A DNA stretch of 64,000 bases from Halorutilales archaeon Cl-col2-1 (GCA_041891055.1 CP169074.1:608001-672000); one strand, 5' to 3'. Positions 4,252 through 56,089 are shown, counted from the first letter of the stretch. The notes: generated from the letters alone by a model not told the origin. Translations and numbers: made by a program.

Positions 4252-4866
4252 ATGGAGATTGGCGACGTAGGTATCTTACGAGGTTCGGGAAGACTCAACA
4301 CAACGGTCTCGTGGCTTCTCATACTCTTCGTCTTGGGAGTCGCGAGTGTGAGTCTTCTTAGGGGCGAACTCCTGTGGTCGGGACTCGTCTTAGCCGTCGC
4401 CGTTGTGAGCGTCTATCCCTCCGTGAGGTACAGGAACGTGTCTGCAGTCATACACTGGAAGATACTCCTACTCGCTCTTCTTCCGGTAGTCGGTCAGACC
4501 GTCGGGGCACCTTTCCTCACGACACGTCTCGGAACTTACATCTCGGTTGCGGCTGTCGCCCTAATCGTCGTGGCTGAGATACGTGTCTTTACCTCGACAA
4601 AAATTCCCGACTATCTCACGGCTGTACTCGTAGCCGTCGCCACGGTCGCCTCAGCAGGCATCTGGGGCGTCGTCAGCTGGCTCTCCGACGTCTACCTCGG
4701 GACATCGATGGTGCCGACGGAAGAGGATCTGATGTGGGGTTTCGTCACGGCGACAGCCGCGGGACTAGTCGCCGGAGTAAGCCTAACCTTCTACTTCCGG
4801 CGTGGAGGCTCCAATCCACACTCCTCGAAAAAGGAAGAGAAGGAGGTAGGACATGGAGAGACGTGA
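4252..4866 (+). CDS. multi-pass membrane protein (paired with the downstream gene)
   Basis: About 6 TM segments; overlaps the start of the next gene. Confidence 0.7.
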   Translation: MEIGDVGILRGSGRLNTTVSWLLILFVLGVASVSLLRGELLWSGLVLAVAVVSVYPSVRYRNVSAVIHWKILLLALLPVVGQTVGAPFLTTRLGTYISVAAVALIVVAEIRVFTSTKIPDYLTAVLVAVATVASAGIWGVVSWLSDVYLGTSMVPTEEDLMWGFVTATAAGLVAGVSLTFYFRRGGSNPHSSKKEEKEVGHGET

Positions 4867-5494
4867 CAGATTAATGTCGGAGAGTTCACAGGCACGTATA
4901 AGCAGAGGAATGCAGATTCTACTCGTCATCGTAGCTGTCTACGGACTCCACCGGAGGAGCGTAGGAACCGTGATCAACAGTCTCGTGGGTCTGGTTATAA
5001 CTTTCTTGCCCTCTGCTCTCGAACGCGACTACGAGATACCCATGGACGCGAGGCTAACGCTCTGGATAACTAGCGCGATCTTCCTCCACGCAGTCGGAAC
5101 ACTCGGCCCCTACTCCTCGGTATGGTGGTGGGATCACGTCACTCACACCCTCTCAGCCGCAGTAGTCGCAGGGGCGGGATACTCGACGGTTCGCGCTCTC
5201 GACATACACTCAGACGAAGTCGAGATACCGCCGCGGCTGACGTTCGTGTTCGTCCTGGTCTTCGTGGTCGCCTTCGGTGTCACATGGGAGGTTCTGGAGT
5301 TCGGTGTCGAGAAAGTCGGAGAGGCGACATGTCAGACCCTTCTGACCCAGTACAGCCTCGAAGACACCATGAAAGACCTGATATTCGACATAGTGGGGGG
5401 TGTGATCGTCGGAATCTGGGGCACGGCTTACCTCACCGACGTCATAGGAGGTATAACGAGTCTCCTCGAAGACAGGGAAGAGAAGAGAGAATAG
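4853..5494 (+). CDS. DUF2238-like membrane protein with putative metal-binding His/Glu/Asp residues
   Basis: FLHAVG, WWDHVTH, WEVLEF and DTMKDL motifs. Confidence 0.72.
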   Translation: MERRDRLMSESSQARISRGMQILLVIVAVYGLHRRSVGTVINSLVGLVITFLPSALERDYEIPMDARLTLWITSAIFLHAVGTLGPYSSVWWWDHVTHTLSAAVVAGAGYSTVRALDIHSDEVEIPPRLTFVFVLVFVVAFGVTWEVLEFGVEKVGEATCQTLLTQYSLEDTMKDLIFDIVGGVIVGIWGTAYLTDVIGGITSLLEDREEKRE

Positions 5495-5499
5495 AGGGA

Positions 5500-5607
5500 T
5501 CAGTACTTCTTGCCGCACCGGTCACATCTCCTTTTCCGACATCCCACCCTCATCTCGGGCATCGGTTCATTCTCCTCGTTCTTCGTGCATCTCGGACACA
5601 GTGCCAT
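5500..5607 (-). CDS. 35-aa one-domain zinc-finger micro-protein
   Basis: MALCPRCTKNEENEPMPEMRVGCRKRRCDRCGKKY*; two CxxC pairs. Confidence 0.55.
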   Translation of the reverse strand: MALCPRCTKNEENEPMPEMRVGCRKRRCDRCGKKY

Positions 5608-5655
5608 GTCTGATAATCCCACAAATGCCTAAAATATCCCAAGTATATGACCTGT

Positions 5656-5760
5656 ATGGATTCCGCCCCGGAACCAGACACCGAACGTGGCTGTCCGAAA
5701 TGTGGTCACACAGAGACTGAAAGCCGAAAAAGCATATCGCGACACCGACAACAGCCGTGA
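5656..5760 (+). pseudogene. truncated CPxCG zinc-ribbon ORF (single CPKCG, 34 aa)
   Basis: MDSAPEPDTERGCPKCGHTETESRKSISRHRQQP*; the second Cys pair is missing. Confidence 0.4.
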
Positions 5761-5822
5761 GAGATAACAAGTGTGGATGTTCGACAGGGATATCAGACTG
5801 AGACTCCTTAGGAAAACACACG

Positions 5823-6872
5823 ATGACACCTCTTGAGATAAGTCTCCGTATCGCCGCGGGTCTTCTCCTTATCCTCGCCAACGGCTTCTTCGTAGCCATC
5901 GAGTTCGCTCTGACACGTGCGCGGCAGTTCAGTGAGAAGGAGTTCATCGACGGGGACTCCGCCCTCGAAAGAGCGTGGGAGATGACACAGAACCTAGAGA
6001 TATACCTAACGACGTGTCAGGTCGGCATTACGGCGTCGAGTATCGCTGTTGGTATCGTCGCAGAGCCCGCTCTCGCGGCTCTCTTCGAGCCCTACTTCGT
6101 CGGCACGCCTCTGGCTTCGATAGGAGCAGGTGCGATCATCGCATTCGGTATTATCAATCTCCTACATCTCACTCACGGAGAACAGACGCCGACCTACCTC
6201 GGTGTCGAACGGTCAAGAATGGTCTGTCGGTACGGCGCAGGACCTCTCTACTGGTTCAACCGTCTGATCTCGCCTCTCATAACCTTCGGCGACTGGATCG
6301 CTAAGGCGACACTCAAGGTCTTCGGGATCGAGATGACGGGTGCGTGGCTTGAAACAGAGGAGGAGGTTCTCGAATCACGTGCACAGCTACGTAACCGGCT
6401 CTACTCGCTCCTAGAGGAGGGTGAGATTCCCGAGGAAAGACGTGAGGAAGTCCTCGGAGCCTTAGACGCCGACGAAATTACGATCAACGAGATAATGGTT
6501 CCGAAAGACGAGATCGTATTCCTGTCGACGGCTGATTCTCCCGAGGAGAACCTCGATCGGATACGCAAAACACCCCACACTCGGTTTCCGGTCGTGGGTG
6601 AGGAGGCGACTGACTTCCACGGAATCGTGTATCTCCCCTCAGTCATGGAGCATCTCGACGAACTCAGATCGGGAAGTCTCTCGTTCACCGAGATCGCGGC
6701 ACCCCCGATGACTCTTTCGGCGGATACTAACGTGAGTGACGCGTTCGACCAGTTCCAGGCGGAGGATCAGGAGCTAGCCCTCGTAATCGAAGACGGTGTA
6801 GTCGTGGGACTTCTGACCGCGACCGACGCACTCGAAGCCGTGATGGGTGAGCTCGAAGATCCTCTAGATTAA
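5823..6872 (+). CDS. CNNM/hemolysin-family (CorC/HlyC) DUF21 + CBS pair protein
   Basis: LANGFFVAIEFAL, CQVGIT, GEQTP, HTRFPV and a C-terminal CBS pair. Confidence 0.9.
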   Translation: MTPLEISLRIAAGLLLILANGFFVAIEFALTRARQFSEKEFIDGDSALERAWEMTQNLEIYLTTCQVGITASSIAVGIVAEPALAALFEPYFVGTPLASIGAGAIIAFGIINLLHLTHGEQTPTYLGVERSRMVCRYGAGPLYWFNRLISPLITFGDWIAKATLKVFGIEMTGAWLETEEEVLESRAQLRNRLYSLLEEGEIPEERREEVLGALDADEITINEIMVPKDEIVFLSTADSPEENLDRIRKTPHTRFPVVGEEATDFHGIVYLPSVMEHLDELRSGSLSFTEIAAPPMTLSADTNVSDAFDQFQAEDQELALVIEDGVVVGLLTATDALEAVMGELEDPLD

Positions 6873-6883
6873 AAGCTGCATCT

Positions 6884-6945
6884 GTTTAGCGAAGCCTCGG
6901 GCGGGATTTGAACGCCGGTCAGTTCCTTCCCTAGTTCAGACCGCT
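6884..6945 (-). repeat. duplicated tRNA-Thr 3' end (30 bp) + 20-nt core + degenerate inverted T-arm copy
   Basis: GTTTAGCGAAGCCTCGGGCGGGATTTGAAC at 6884-6913 is identical to 6964-6993. Confidence 0.9.
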
Positions 6946-6972
6946 TGAGGCACGCTAAACTCGGTTTAGCGA

Positions 6973-7045
6973 AGCCTCGGGCGGGATTTGAACCCGCGAA
7001 CCTCGTCATTACCAATGACGCGCTCTACCTCTGAGCTACCGAGGC
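6973..7045 (-). tRNA. tRNA-Thr(GGT)
   Basis: Acceptor stem GCCTCGG/CCGAGGC, anticodon arm CGTCA-TTGGTAA-TGACG, GGTTCAAATCC T-arm; no encoded CCA. Confidence 0.97.
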
Positions 7046-7155
7046 GCAGCTTCGAGTAGGGGGTTCGGCGTAAAGAAGATTTTTATTTGGATCAGGGTGC
7101 CAAAAAGTCATGAAAAATCAGATAGATATAAATAAGATTAGCCACAGGAACAATA

Positions 7156-7476
7156 ATGAAGAAAGCAAAAACAGGGGATAGCATGCCGAGGATAATAAAG
7201 AAAGGTCTCGAAGAACGTGAGGACGCATGGCTCGTGAAGCTAGACGAACCCGCCGAGGTAGAGCATCCGGTGTGTTCAGCGGTAGACAACGTAATGACAG
7301 TAGAGACCGAGTACTTCGTGGTCGACGAGAAGGAGTCATACGGTGACGACGTCGAGGTATGTGCGTTCCCCTCGGACGAGGAGGGTTCGATATCTACCTT
7401 CCTTGAGGTCGCGGGAGGACTCAACAAGACACACGAGGACGTCGTCGGCGAGCTTCGGAACCTGAGTGGCTCGTAG
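7156..7476 (+). CDS. hypothetical acidic protein
   Basis: Open frame with host-like codons; AT-rich promoter-like sequence upstream; start may be ATG 7183. Confidence 0.6.
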   Translation: MKKAKTGDSMPRIIKKGLEEREDAWLVKLDEPAEVEHPVCSAVDNVMTVETEYFVVDEKESYGDDVEVCAFPSDEEGSISTFLEVAGGLNKTHEDVVGELRNLSGS

Positions 7477-7533
7477 GAGTCCTGTATCCGGGAGTATAGC
7501 AAGCTTTTTGTCTCCTAGCTTTCCGTCTTCTGT

Positions 7534-8022
7534 ATGACCAAGAGAAGAGACCTGATAGAGGCATTATCTAAGAACGCGCGTCTGTCTTCTGAGGATCTAG
7601 CGCGTCTCACGGGTCTCGACGAGGACAGGGTCGAGAGCCTCATAGAGGAGATGGAGGACGAGGGTATCATACGTGGCTACCAGGCTATAGTCGACTGGGA
7701 GGAGATAGAGGGCGAGTACGTCAGGGCTATGATAGAGCTCAACGTCACACTCGACCGTGAGACGAGCTACGACGACGTCGCTCGGCGTATAAGCAAGTTC
7801 TCGAAGGTACATTCGCTCAAGCTCGTGAGCGGCAACTACGACTTCGCCTTAGAAGTCGAGGCGGAGTCAATGGCTGAGATCTCGAACTTCGTGAGCGAGA
7901 AGATCGCTCCGGTTCCCGAGGTCACACAGACCGTCACCCATCTCATAATGAGGACTTACAAGGAGGGAGGAACCGAACTGACCGACTCACACGACGACGA
8001 CCGGCTTTCGGTCTCACCCTAA
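7534..8022 (+). CDS. Lrp/AsnC family transcriptional regulator
   Basis: N-terminal HTH (NARLSSEDLA...GIIRGY) and RAM domain (VSGNYDF). Confidence 0.92.
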   Translation: MTKRRDLIEALSKNARLSSEDLARLTGLDEDRVESLIEEMEDEGIIRGYQAIVDWEEIEGEYVRAMIELNVTLDRETSYDDVARRISKFSKVHSLKLVSGNYDFALEVEAESMAEISNFVSEKIAPVPEVTQTVTHLIMRTYKEGGTELTDSHDDDRLSVSP

Positions 8023-8042
8023 CTAATTACGGAGGACAGAAG

Positions 8043-9185
8043 ATGGACATATCCGAAAGGGCGAGACAGGTTCCTCCGTCGGGAATCCGTCGTTTCTTCG
8101 AACTCGCAGAGGAGATGGACGACGTCATATCCCTCGGAGTCGGGGAGCCCGACTTCTCAGCGCCGTGGTCGGCGAGGGAGGCGGCGATAGAGTCGCTAGA
8201 ACGCGGACAGACCTCGTACACTACGAACAGAGGAAAACGTGAGCTACGTGAGGCGGTATCCCGGAAGGTCTCGGAGTACGGTCTCGAATACGCAGCCGAC
8301 GACGAGATACTCGTGACTACGGGAGTGAGTGAGGCTGCCGATCTCGCTCTGAGAGCCCTCGTCGACCCGGGCGACACAGTCGCAGTCGCCGAGCCGTCGT
8401 ACGTCTCTTACGTCCCGGGAGTGATATTCTCAGGGGGTGAGCCTCTCAGGATTCCGACGCGTCTTGAGAACGACTTCAAGCTACGTTACGAAGACCTCGA
8501 AGAAGCGGGTGCCGAAGACGCCGAGGTTCTCATAATCTGTTACCCCAACAACCCCACAGGGGCCGTGATGACTGAGGAAGAACTGAGGGAAGTAGCCGAC
8601 TTCGCGCGCGAGAACGACATAACTGTCGTCTCCGACGAGGTCTACGCCGACCTGACGTACGGGGGAAAAGACGGGGGAGACCACGCCTCGATAGCGACTC
8701 TCGACGGCATGAGAGAACGCACCGTAGTATTCAACGGCTTCTCGAAGGCTTATGCGATGACAGGTCTACGTCTCGGCTACGCACTCGGTCCCTCAGAGGT
8801 CATCGACGCGATGAACCGGATACACCAGTACACGATGCTCTCGGCTCCGACGACGGCGCAGTACGCAGCGATCGATGCCCTCGAATCGTGTGATGACGAC
8901 GTCGCTGAGATGAGACGTGAGTACAACAGGAGACGGCGTTATGTCCTCTCGCGTTTCGAGGAGATGGGCATCGACTGTTTCACCGCCGAGGGTGCCTTCT
9001 ATCTCTTCCCCGAGTCGCCCTACGACGACGAGGAGTTCGCCGAGGATCTTCTCAAGGAGAAGAAGGTCGCTGTCGTTCCGGGTAGGGTATTCGGTGAGAG
9101 TGGCGAGGGTCATCTACGTGTCTCATACGCCACGGGTCTCGACGAGCTCAAAGAGGCTCTCGACAGGATAGAGGAGTTCATATAA
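8043..9185 (+). CDS. PLP-dependent class I/II (aspartate-type) aminotransferase
   Basis: SLGVGEPDF, YPNNPTG, SDEVY, GFSKAYAMTGLRLG. Confidence 0.93.
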   Translation: MDISERARQVPPSGIRRFFELAEEMDDVISLGVGEPDFSAPWSAREAAIESLERGQTSYTTNRGKRELREAVSRKVSEYGLEYAADDEILVTTGVSEAADLALRALVDPGDTVAVAEPSYVSYVPGVIFSGGEPLRIPTRLENDFKLRYEDLEEAGAEDAEVLIICYPNNPTGAVMTEEELREVADFARENDITVVSDEVYADLTYGGKDGGDHASIATLDGMRERTVVFNGFSKAYAMTGLRLGYALGPSEVIDAMNRIHQYTMLSAPTTAQYAAIDALESCDDDVAEMRREYNRRRRYVLSRFEEMGIDCFTAEGAFYLFPESPYDDEEFAEDLLKEKKVAVVPGRVFGESGEGHLRVSYATGLDELKEALDRIEEFI

Positions 9186-9229
9186 GTACATAACACAAGC
9201 CTTAATCTCCGATCCGACGATGTAGAACC

Positions 9230-9799
9230 ATGAAGATATACACGGGAAGAGGTGACAAGGGACAGACTGATCTCAGAAACGGCGGACGCGTCTCTAAGTC
9301 GTCTGCAAGGATAGAGGCATACGGAACAGTCGACGAACTCAACGCACACGTCGGCTTCGCTGCCTCGAACCTCGACGCGGGTCAGCACGGCGATGTCGTC
9401 GACGTTCTCAAGGAGGTACAGAACCGTCTCTTCAAGGCACAGGCTCATCTCTCGAACCCCGACAAGGGAGAAGACGACCCACGTGTCACTGACGACGACA
9501 CCGACTGGCTGGAGGAGAAGTGTGATGACTTCGACGAGGAGATCCCGCCTCTCGAATCCTTCATACTTCCGAGCGGGTCGTCAGCGGGTTCATCTCTCCA
9601 TCTCGCACGTACTGTATGTAGGAGATCTGAGAGACGCTCGGTGGGCCTCCTCGCCGAGGTAGAAGAGACAGAAGGTACCGACGTCGACGACACACAGAAG
9701 GTCGTCCAGTTCCTCAACAGGCTGTCCGACCTCCTGTTCATACTCGGACGTGTGGTCAACCACAGGGAAGGCACCAAGGAAGAACGTCCGACGTACTAG
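9230..9799 (+). CDS. pduO: ATP:cob(I)alamin adenosyltransferase, PduO type
   Basis: KIYTGRGDKGQT, YGTVDELN, RTVCRRSER, LNRLSD. Confidence 0.93.
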   Translation: MKIYTGRGDKGQTDLRNGGRVSKSSARIEAYGTVDELNAHVGFAASNLDAGQHGDVVDVLKEVQNRLFKAQAHLSNPDKGEDDPRVTDDDTDWLEEKCDDFDEEIPPLESFILPSGSSAGSSLHLARTVCRRSERRSVGLLAEVEETEGTDVDDTQKVVQFLNRLSDLLFILGRVVNHREGTKEERPTY

Positions 9800-55828: not shown

Positions 55829-55884
55829 ACGGGCCGGGAGGGATTCGAACTTTGGTCATTGCATTCCCGAGTTCGAATCCTTCC
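55829..55884 (-). repeat. duplicated tRNA-Lys 3' end (22 bp) + 20-nt core + inverted T-arm copy
   Basis: ACGGGCCGGGAGGGATTCGAAC at 55829-55850 is identical to 55895-55916; GTTCGAATCCTTCC at 55871-55884 is the inverted copy. Confidence 0.9.
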
Positions 55885-55895
55885 TGAGAGTTAAA

Positions 55896-55970
55896 CGGGC
55901 CGGGAGGGATTCGAACCCTCGGTCATCTGGTTAAGAGCCAGACGCTTTAACCGGACTAAGCTACCGGCCC
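55896..55970 (-). tRNA. tRNA-Lys(CTT)
   Basis: GGGCCGG/CCGGCCC acceptor stem, TCTGG-CTCTTAA-CCAGA anticodon arm, GGTTCGAATCC. Confidence 0.97.
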
Positions 55971-56089
55971 ACTGCGTTTCTAACTTTGACGGGGTATTCT
56001 TTATAGGTTGTGATTCGAACTCGGGGATGCAGTCCCCGACGACAGCCCCATGAAAAGCTTCTTACGTCGGTATTTCAAATCTGTTATGC

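Follow-up and report, generated by a model that had tools for sequence, protein, structure and literature searches.

Why should the 3′ end of a tRNA gene be followed by an exact second copy of itself, with an inverted copy and a short core between the two, and why should a related core reappear behind a different tRNA? These questions are raised by the tRNA-Thr and tRNA-Lys loci in the window analyzed here, a stretch of 64,000 nucleotides from Halorutilales archaeon Cl-col2-1. Judging from the sequences compared, the two features are members of one haloarchaeal family, the "tRNA-tail hairpin cassettes," which is absent outside this group in the genomes sampled. In our literature searches, we found no description of such cassettes.

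Layout of the cassettes at tRNA-Thr and tRNA-Lys

The gene for tRNA-Thr(GGT) is located on the minus strand at 6973-7045 (ARAGORN; 69.4 bits with the Rfam tRNA model), and all parts of its cassette are read on the same strand. The proximal copy, which we call A, consists of the tRNA bases from G53 to the 3′ end (6973-6993) and therefore lies within the gene itself. It is followed by a 9-nt trailer, TCGCTAAAC in tRNA sense (6964-6972), which is duplicated along with A (33-nt repeat family D1). The resulting 30-nt unit (6964-6993; 21 nt of tRNA and 9 nt of trailer) recurs exactly at 6884-6913, where A occupies 6893-6913 and the trailer 6884-6892. This duplication had been described in the initial annotation of the window, and our blastn comparison agrees with it at 30/30 positions and a spacing of 80 nt; a repeat finder run on the same locus returned 33 nt at 97%, again with 80-nt spacing. 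The 20-nt core that had been placed next to the distal copy is likewise present, at 6914-6933, where it is defined by alignment A1 and pair counts and scores 59.3 bits with our covariance model R1. Within this core, the bases at 6917-6931 form a mini-hairpin, GGGAAG-GAA-CTGACC, with tandem G.A pairs, and the rest of the core consists of linker bases.

Between the core and the gene lies the inverted copy, A′. A degenerate inverted T-arm had been noticed here, and it is indeed found at 6934-6951 (GCCTCAAGCGGTCTGAAC in tRNA sense) as a decayed inversion of the T-loop, the T-stem and the acceptor 3′ strand. It is not the T-arm alone, however: The whole inverted segment, 6934-6960, is a decayed reverse of the complete 30 nt, trailer included. 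Because A′ at this locus contains the inverted trailer, it appears to have been copied from local DNA. In predicted folds, the partner of A′ is 6893-6913, and the inverted trailer copy (6953-6960) can pair with either the proximal or the distal trailer. Pairing with the proximal trailer gives the previously noted 8-bp hairpin, CGCTAAAC-TCG-GTTTAGCG, which is present at 6953-6971 with its loop at 6961-6963.

The same layout had been claimed for the tRNA-Lys locus, and we find it behind tRNA-Lys(CTT) (55895-55971; ARAGORN), also on the minus strand. Here, A′ (GGAAGGATTCGAAC in tRNA sense) is located at 55871-55884 and belongs to an inverted repeat, I5, of 15 nt at 93%. The core at 55851-55870, recognized in the sequence, in alignment A1 and in the pair counts (50.7 bits with R1), is identical to that of the Thr cassette at 13/20 positions, as originally counted. 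Its mini-hairpin, GGGAAT-GCA-ATGACC, spans 55854-55868 and is closed by a U-A pair instead of the G-C pair of the Thr copy. The distal copy repeats the 22 nt from G53 through the tRNA terminus without a mismatch (55829-55850; blastn 22/22). The DNA between the direct repeats is non-coding and measures 50 nt at Thr and 44 nt at Lys.

Direct repeats of a tRNA 3′ end recall ordinary scars of prophages or integrative plasmids, that is, attL/attR pairs whose cargo has been deleted, and real islands with such repeats do exist in this genome at tRNA-Ala(CGC) (~18 kb), tRNA-Glu(CTC) (~57 kb) and tRNA-Gln(TTG) (~5 kb). The att repeats of these classical islands are plain, however, and contain neither the core nor the inverted arm. 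When the two loci were examined as att pairs, the direct tRNA 3′ repeat was present (30 nt at Thr, 22 nt at Lys), but an integrase or cargo was absent; no integrase or integrase remnant was found in the cassettes read, and no viral or plasmid attP with the core was found in the collections searched. What recurs instead, at 14 tRNA families and in 44 genera, is a non-coding stretch of ~45-110 nt that contains the same conserved hairpin. The earlier argument that a plain prophage att scar is insufficient is supported, and we consider such scars a very improbable origin of the cassettes.

The genome has 11 matches to tyrosine recombinases (PF00589), none of which adjoins a cassette, and its single Y1 transposase match, of interest as the TnpA/TnpB partner that an IS200/IS605-derived PATE would have, is unlinked to any of them; a larger version carrying an integrase or TnpA, for which the initial annotation had suggested looking, did not turn up. 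There are no matches in this genome, which is 99.5% complete, to the reverse transcriptase (PF00078) that a retroelement product would require. A MITE was rejected, since the repeat varies in length (10 to 99 nt from G53) and the inverted arms take their sequence from the local tRNA instead of being element-specific. A blastn search with a single 105-nt query from another genus, which may miss diverged copies, gave no match in 50,697 phage or 72,556 plasmid records. A pattern scan of IMG/VR returned 2 matches, both of them unrelated low-GC sequences of a tRNA-like gene.

A covarying hairpin behind haloarchaeal tRNA genes

All 43 tRNAs of this genome (ARAGORN calls, without introns) were compared with the whole 2.06-Mb sequence, and 11 of them have a short-range duplicate of their 3′ end, in one and the same layout when read in tRNA sense: Phe, Thr(GGT), Lys(CTT), Ser(TGA), Leu(CAA), Tyr, Val(GAC), Ile, Arg(GCG), Leu(TAG) and Gln(CTG). 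At tRNA-Val(GAC), the cassette has become an array of 12 tandem units with an 81-bp period, and decayed copies are located behind Leu(GAG), Met and the distal Gln(TTG) copy. A core-only pattern, AGGGAA.{4,10}TGACCG, occurs 19 times in the genome, 17 times directly 5′ of a tRNA-tail copy; one of the remaining two sites belongs to a second unit behind tRNA-Leu(TAG) and the other lies elsewhere. The full motif occurs 18 times, always in a cassette, and its reversed control not once. The motif occurs far above chance, and the enrichment at tRNA 3′ flanks that had been anticipated is borne out; nor are the cassettes all ends of known integrative elements, the other finding that would have told against the initial annotation. 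R1 gave 19 matches at E ≤ 5e-9, distributed over 8 tRNA loci, with weaker ones at Leu(TAG), Leu(GAG) and Met, and on the real tRNAs of this genome it reached E ≥ 0.03 only.

In tRNA sense, from 5′ to 3′, a unit consists of the tRNA, a trailer or spacer, A′, the core (~20 nt) and A. The left edge of the direct copy A falls precisely on G53, which immediately precedes the T-loop, and the copy continues as far as the tRNA 3′ end or into the trailer; the bases 5′ of G53 (CGNGG) resemble the 5′ strand of a T-stem in its general form. A′, which inverts A imperfectly, comprises the T-loop and the T-stem 3′ strand, in some copies with the acceptor 3′ strand and trailer as well; it extends into the acceptor strand at Ile, Tyr, Arg(GCG) and Ser. 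In what we call "type-2" units, the arms start in the acceptor strand instead of the T-loop. Across the wider family, A′ is reliable for the T-loop and T-stem only: Beyond the T-stem, 32% of 133 copies had their own tail placed within the best 10% when it was ranked among unrelated tails. Because this specificity is modest, the term "acceptor-stem mimic" is true of some copies and not of all. The notion that every copy mimics the acceptor stem was therefore dropped, A′ fitting its own acceptor strand only modestly better than unrelated ones. Every copy is predicted to fold as one long imperfect hairpin with a small hairpin as its cap.

The complementarity of A′ to the T-loop and T-stem of the tRNA suggests that A′ might act as an antisense, in cis or in trans, pairing with the T-arm of the pre-tRNA and modulating its folding or processing while the distal A competes with it. 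Alternatively, the distal A, being an exact att-like copy in a genome where integrated islands at tRNA genes are common, might serve as a spare attachment site that draws integrating elements away from the gene. Against the first idea, the tRNA folds before A′ is made, and the A′:A hairpin, which is intramolecular, would be strongly favored; against the second, a decoy would bring little benefit, as integrating elements normally restore the tRNA end. The conserved mini-hairpin is explained by neither idea, and we regard this pair of roles as distinctly improbable.

That the core is itself a covarying hairpin goes beyond the initial annotation, as do the spread of the family across nearly all haloarchaea and the age of some copies, which are old orthologues. 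The core reads GG-GA-R...Y-GA-CC, in which a pair of G-C base pairs is followed by two conserved G.A/A.G oppositions and then by a Watson-Crick stem with a short loop; the wider consensus is CA-GG-GA-R...Y-GA-CC-GNG with a variable upper stem. We tested the helix in alignment A1, which retains 19 of 29 regex rows: Six were dropped as nested longer alternatives, and four long-loop or diverged copies were left out as well, namely Leu(TAG) in both species of the genus, Leu(GAG) and Gln(CTG). In these 19 copies, the helix is 98.7% paired. One of the covarying pairs is C-G in 10, G-C in 7 and U-A in 1, and another is A-U in 17 and G-C in 2. The observed covariation score was reached by none of 500 shuffles, and shifting the partner column abolished the pairing. 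Other genera have a longer upper stem that is fully compensated, e.g., GGGAGCGCC-UUC-GGCGCGACC and GGGAAGAGC-GUU-GCUCUGACC. Over 148 distinct copies, the upper-stem pairs comprise 410 Watson-Crick, 17 G.U, 2 A.C and 16 other combinations. Since copies from related species are not independent, these and the other copy counts overstate the support. Changes in A′ are wobble-making at 186/1222 sites and A.C-making at 137/1607, a difference dominated by one conserved U.G53 position and hence of little weight.

This hairpin corresponds to none of the RNA classes with which we compared it. Rfam 15 gave no family for the cassette at the gathering score, either at the Thr locus or at six other loci. 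A tRNA or cloverleaf was rejected, as even at E ≤ 10 Rfam finds the true tRNA alone at the Thr locus and true tRNAs alone at the six others. The tandem G.A pairs have Watson-Crick pairs on both sides and no 3-nt bulge, which excludes a kink-turn. Neither a C box, as in box C/D RNAs, nor a consistent ACA 3′ of the hairpin, as in H/ACA RNAs, is present. Around the two T-loops, the sequences resemble each other and are not complementary, which leaves no way to form the bulge-helix-bulge of an intron. An argument for RNA from a UNCG tetraloop was also abandoned, since with the correct stem the loops have 3 nt (UUC, UCU, UCC).

The predicted fold is asymmetric between strands. Of 133 distinct copies, 123 fold more stably as the sense strand and 7 as the antisense strand; with the arms taken by themselves, the numbers are 102 and 20, and with the core by itself 119 and 2. 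The G.A pairs of the core become C.U on the opposite strand. The arms of the Thr and Lys cassettes are exceptions that fold better in antisense (-41 vs -34.2 and -32 vs -23.1 kcal/mol, respectively), and the G-to-A changes in their A′ give C.A mismatches on the sense strand and G.U pairs on the antisense strand.

We then consider how far the family extends. R1 was calibrated quickly and its E-values are rough; at E ≤ 1e-4, it matched 127 of 151 genomes of the haloarchaeal order and 44 of 47 genera, with 1-21 matches per genome. In a phylum-wide sample, also of 151 genomes, 19 matched, all of them in the haloarchaeal order, and the 0/130 matches outside the order serve as a control that ordinary tRNAs do not score. 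A strict short-form pattern searched in 201 genomes gave 18 and 6 copies in the genus and single copies in 5 other genomes, and the reversed pattern gave 0 matches in the same 201. The exact pattern was found in at least 120 stretches of named genomes; the titles among the matches listed are haloarchaeal (Haloferax, Halorubrum, Natrinema, Haloarcula, Halobellus, Natrialba and others) or belong to MAGs, one of which, among the matches listed, is labelled Methanobacteriota.

The genomic context was inspected for 27 of ~650 R1 matches and for 82 pattern copies in 80 named loci, the pattern-derived set being biased towards the consensus. All 27 R1 loci have the cassette 3′ of a tRNA end and on the same strand (3 of these tRNAs were called only with introns allowed). 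A same-strand tRNA lies upstream in the locus for 78/82 pattern copies, and 74/82 are located within 300 nt downstream of a same-strand tRNA with the same T-loop, at a median gap of 56 nt; the usual position is about 40-150 nt downstream of the tRNA gene, on its strand. Identity to the tRNA is exact from G53 to the tRNA end in 49/74 and has at most 2 mismatches in 60/74, it continues at least 5 nt past the tRNA end into the trailer in 14/74, and the exact run from G53 measures 10 to 99 nt. The host tRNAs represent 14 amino-acid families and 23 anticodons; in Haloferax and Halorubrum species, cassettes follow tRNA-Val(TAC), Arg(TCG), Gly and Leu(CAA). In 26 of 29 model-derived copies, A′ reflects the T-loop variant of the host (GTTCGAA or GTTCAAA), in agreement with the earlier observation that the arms follow the local tRNA while the core is common to the loci. 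At tRNA-Leu(CAA), the cassette is an orthologue, flanks included, in several genera and families; its stems are conserved and mainly the loop varies. Since some copies are such old orthologues, the "tiny mobile element" of the initial annotation is not established.

Turnover of the cassettes and possible role

A comparison with the sole other species of the genus reveals both persistence and change. Cassettes at Thr, Ser, Ile, Arg(GCG), Tyr and Leu(TAG) are common to the two species. The Val units number 12 here and 1 in the sister species, where the Lys(CTT) cassette is truncated, retaining A′ and missing the core, A and 27 nt; the sister species alone has cassettes at Lys(TTT), Arg(TCG) and Leu(TAA). 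At Lys(TTT), the two species differ by a clean 72 nt whose edges are the direct repeat, and a difference bounded in this way would look the same whether it arose by gain or by repeat-mediated loss. The trailer copies at Arg(GCG) agree within each species and differ between the two, i.e., they change in concert. Within the genus, the core is identical at Thr, Ser and Lys(TTT), and other lineages have core styles of their own over several tRNAs; such shared styles would fit spread of the cassettes, or gene conversion via conserved flanks. Arrays also occur elsewhere, with 4 units in genome G190 and 2 in genome G046. In contigs of four DNA metagenome runs over 4500-9500, we found only a sister-like variant with a 1-nt deletion at 6914 and a different left flank, and no excision junction.

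These observations bring to mind a recombination site made of folded single-strand DNA, at which a tyrosine recombinase supplied in trans would cross over in the T-loop. The sense hairpin of A′, core and A would rebuild a double-stranded T-arm region in its stem, as in integron attC or the CTX attP, and the cassettes would be miniature, gene-less integrative units accumulating in arrays. The T-loop is one of the classic crossover sublocations of tRNA-integrating elements, and it would fix the left identity edge at G53 while the right edge varies; the likeness of the CGNGG before G53 to a T-stem 5′ strand points the same way. A hairpin with conserved imperfections and a variable terminal structure is in keeping with this scheme, and G.A pairs and GAA triloops are stable in DNA too. 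The arrays (12 units at tRNA-Val, 4 and 2 in the two genomes above), the presence/absence difference bounded exactly by the direct repeat at Lys(TTT), and the identical cores at Thr, Ser and Lys(TTT) can be counted on the same side. On the other hand, no recombinase is linked to any copy, and the phage, plasmid and viral collections gave no relevant match. If crossing over in the T-loop brought in a foreign cassette, the 3′ end of the tRNA would be replaced and a single-copy tRNA destroyed; the type-2 arms begin in the acceptor strand and not in the T-loop, the Leu(CAA) copy is an old orthologue instead of a recent arrival, and the clean loss is equally explained by ordinary recombination between repeats. 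Taken as a whole, including the attC-like stem and the gene-less units, we judge this explanation unlikely, though it keeps a real chance.

The indels, changes in copy number and truncated copies between the two species could also mean that the cassettes are inert by-products of replication, in which tandem duplication of the tail and hairpin-primed template switching at GA-capped trailer hairpins produced an A-A′-A arrangement, and in which conservation reflects gene conversion and hairpin stability and not function. Ordinary tRNA trailers of haloarchaea commonly contain GA-capped hairpins, e.g., GAACGAAGTGA, and the Thr inverted copy, which includes the trailer, points to local DNA as its source. 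Random template switches, however, would not be expected to yield one conserved junction. Moreover, the base of the core with G53, GG-GA...GA-CC-GNG-G53, is kept over 44 genera while the changes in the upper stem are compensatory, the pairing is asymmetric between strands in 123/133 copies, and the Leu(CAA) cassette has been retained as an orthologue across families. Inertness of both the cassettes and their conservation therefore seems to us improbable.

For the family, the analysis establishes the anatomy, the covariation in the mini-hairpin, the confinement to tRNA 3′ flanks, the distribution and a fold that is asymmetric between strands, together with a rapid turnover in which the direct repeats allow cassettes to be gained or lost and arrays to grow. 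Our preferred reading of them, to which we would give somewhat less than an even chance, is that the cassette is a structured RNA of the tRNA 3′ trailer that would be expressed with the tRNA and kept like it by gene conversion. This is suggested by the pairing on the sense strand, by an orientation that follows the tRNA, by the long conservation of some copies and by the stable tRNA 3′ trailers of ~60 nt that are known in Haloferax volcanii (PMC3495736).

We propose that the cassette would be transcribed as part of the tRNA 3′ trailer and that the trailer RNA would fold into a long hairpin in which the tRNA's own T-loop and T-stem make up the 3′ arm and the end of the tRNA makes up the 3′ end. 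A structured module of this kind would act in cis, possibly as a second processing or termination signal for tRNase Z, RNase P or the CCA-adding enzyme, or alternatively as a stabilizer from which a discrete trailer RNA would result. The acceptor strand and discriminator of the tRNA form the end of the hairpin in several copies, and these enzymes could conceivably read them as a second end signal. Some observations count against a structured trailer RNA: The Rfam tRNA model is blind to the cassette, the arms at Thr and Lys fold better in antisense, and the signal from T runs is weak, T5 runs within 45 nt being found in 0/102 cases after the proximal tRNA end and 8/102 after the distal copy, and T4 runs in 5/102 and 15/102, respectively. 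A 2012 Biochimie paper is said to describe 47 extra tRNA-like elements of H. volcanii that were not cleaved in vitro.

How, then, is the cassette maintained? The identity of A in some cases continues past the unpaired acceptor strand into the trailer (the 14/74 copies above), which is needless for the hairpin and points to a DNA-level process. Both the A-tRNA identity and its extension into the trailer are better explained at this level, and we suppose that gene conversion or unequal exchange involving the neighboring gene would preserve the match of A to the tRNA. The origin of A′ is best explained by hairpin-primed template switching, by which, as in quasi-palindromes, A′ may be both made and repaired, and the cores may be homogenized between loci through their conserved flanks. 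Going further, the cassettes could be an unrecognized class of appendage, a self-renewing hairpin that copies the end of its host tRNA both ways around a conserved, G.A-clamped mini-hairpin and gives rise to a discrete trailer RNA mimicking the top half of a tRNA; we regard this as possible but rather doubtful.

The ends of tRNA genes are among the best-studied microbial loci, and the haloarchaea include model organisms; the cassette is nevertheless located behind up to ~1/3 of the tRNA genes of a genome, in most genera, and is found neither in Rfam nor in the literature searched. If it functions as RNA, it would be a new part of archaeal tRNA transcription units and a candidate signal for the processing of 3′ ends or for termination, two steps about which little is understood in haloarchaea. 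Should it instead be a recombination site of folded DNA, archaeal tRNA genes would have in it their first attC-like system. On either reading, it would account for many "partial tRNA" calls that are usually taken as prophage scars, it offers a natural system for the concerted evolution of a gene and a neighboring repeat, and the covariance model is ready for use in annotation.

Relation to known systems

Among systems based on DNA, integron attC sites and the folded attP of CTX share with the cassettes an imperfect, strand-specific hairpin with conserved irregularities and a variable tip, and they share the occurrence in arrays. The cassettes, in contrast, have no link to IntI or Xer and no R′/R″ consensus, and their arms come from the host tRNA. 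The attL/attR sites of islands with tyrosine integrases of the T-loop class are alike in that an intact tRNA gene is followed by a repeat of its segment between T-loop and 3′ end, and in that tandem arrays can form. Unlike these, the cassettes have neither cargo nor integrase, add the GA mini-hairpin and the inverted tail, and are chromosomal only in the collections searched.

A parallel in the trailer of a tRNA is found in E. coli, where the 178-bp rtT repeats behind the tyrT tRNA-Tyr genes are co-transcribed and processed into RNA. They too are tandem units, each of which carries the tRNA 3′-terminal bases. The rtT repeats belong to one locus in one lineage and have no inverted arm or mini-hairpin, whereas the cassettes are spread over 14 tRNA families and 44 genera. 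Within the haloarchaea, the t-elements of H. volcanii are described as tRNA-like processing signals for tRNase Z and RNase P (PMC4326828). Both are non-tRNA structures made of tRNA-like parts that enzymes acting on tRNA ends could potentially read; the cassette differs in that it has no cloverleaf and goes unseen by the tRNA model, and in that its T-loop is paired with A′. The PATEs, SMRs and MITEs of haloarchaea, as presented in the accessible part of a survey of Haloquadratum mobile elements in which no tRNA-linked repeat is described (PMC3119063), resemble the cassettes in being small, non-coding, hairpin-bearing, multi-copy and transposase-free. They show no tie to tRNA genes and carry no copy of their target in direct and inverted orientation, and it is these two features that distinguish the cassettes from them.

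Cassette units and hairpin caps at tRNA ends

Outside the window, the tRNA-Val(GAC) locus of Cl-col2-1 carries a tandem array of 12 units of 81 bp, all of them complete cassettes, in which a core mini-hairpin lies between an inverted and a direct copy of the tRNA end (G000:C1:1464033-1464944, in whole-genome coordinates); the sister species has 1 cassette unit at this locus. Haloarchaeal tRNA trailers repeatedly contain GAACGAAGTGA or related motifs (GAGCGA..GCGA), which cap hairpins with tandem G.A pairs; examples among many loci are the trailers of the tRNA loci L045, L059 and L061, as well as G000:C1:1218979, 1916270 and 1916325. Such caps are found also in trailers without a cassette. The cassette core may have been built from them. 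In type-2 units (G000:C1:1916285-1916320 and locus L193 of the sister species, G001), the cassette mini-hairpin has the acceptor 3' strand on one side and the complement of that strand on the other, with no other flanking arm. One type-2 unit of the sister species sits exactly where tRNA-Leu(TAA) ends; Cl-col2-1 lacks it.

Surroundings of tRNA-Thr and tRNA-Lys

Adjoining the cassette of tRNA-Thr(GGT), a 349-aa ORF (window 5823-6872) is missing in the sister species, where two other ORFs stand instead, one small and zinc-ribbon-like, the other a short membrane ORF; the window counterpart of the zinc-ribbon ORF is broken off at about 5714. Window 5715-6872 is a gene replacement, and it ends a few bases from the distal tRNA-Thr tail copy (6884-6913). 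Immediately upstream of tRNA-Thr, window 7080-7200 is strongly AT-rich (the genome has 55% G+C).

Upstream of tRNA-Lys(CTT), the plus strand at window 56012-56040 reads GATTCGAAC, then a perfect 7-bp hairpin (TCGGGGA-TGCAG-TCCCCGA). This element forms an inverted repeat, I1, with part of the Lys cassette (20 nt at 95% complementarity) and may be a decayed cassette in reverse orientation.

tRNA calls and classical islands

The default tRNA scan overlooked intron-bearing tRNA-Trp and tRNA-Met (G000:C1:1589558-1589753 and 941738-941844), and several further "intron tRNAs", whose called introns are very long, appear spurious. The genome contains three integrated islands of the classical type, bounded by fragments of tRNA-Ala(CGC) (G000:C1:1671458-1689671), tRNA-Glu(CTC) (G000:C1:1277907-1335129) and tRNA-Gln(TTG) (G000:C1:1799511-1804508); the first two contain tyrosine-recombinase genes.
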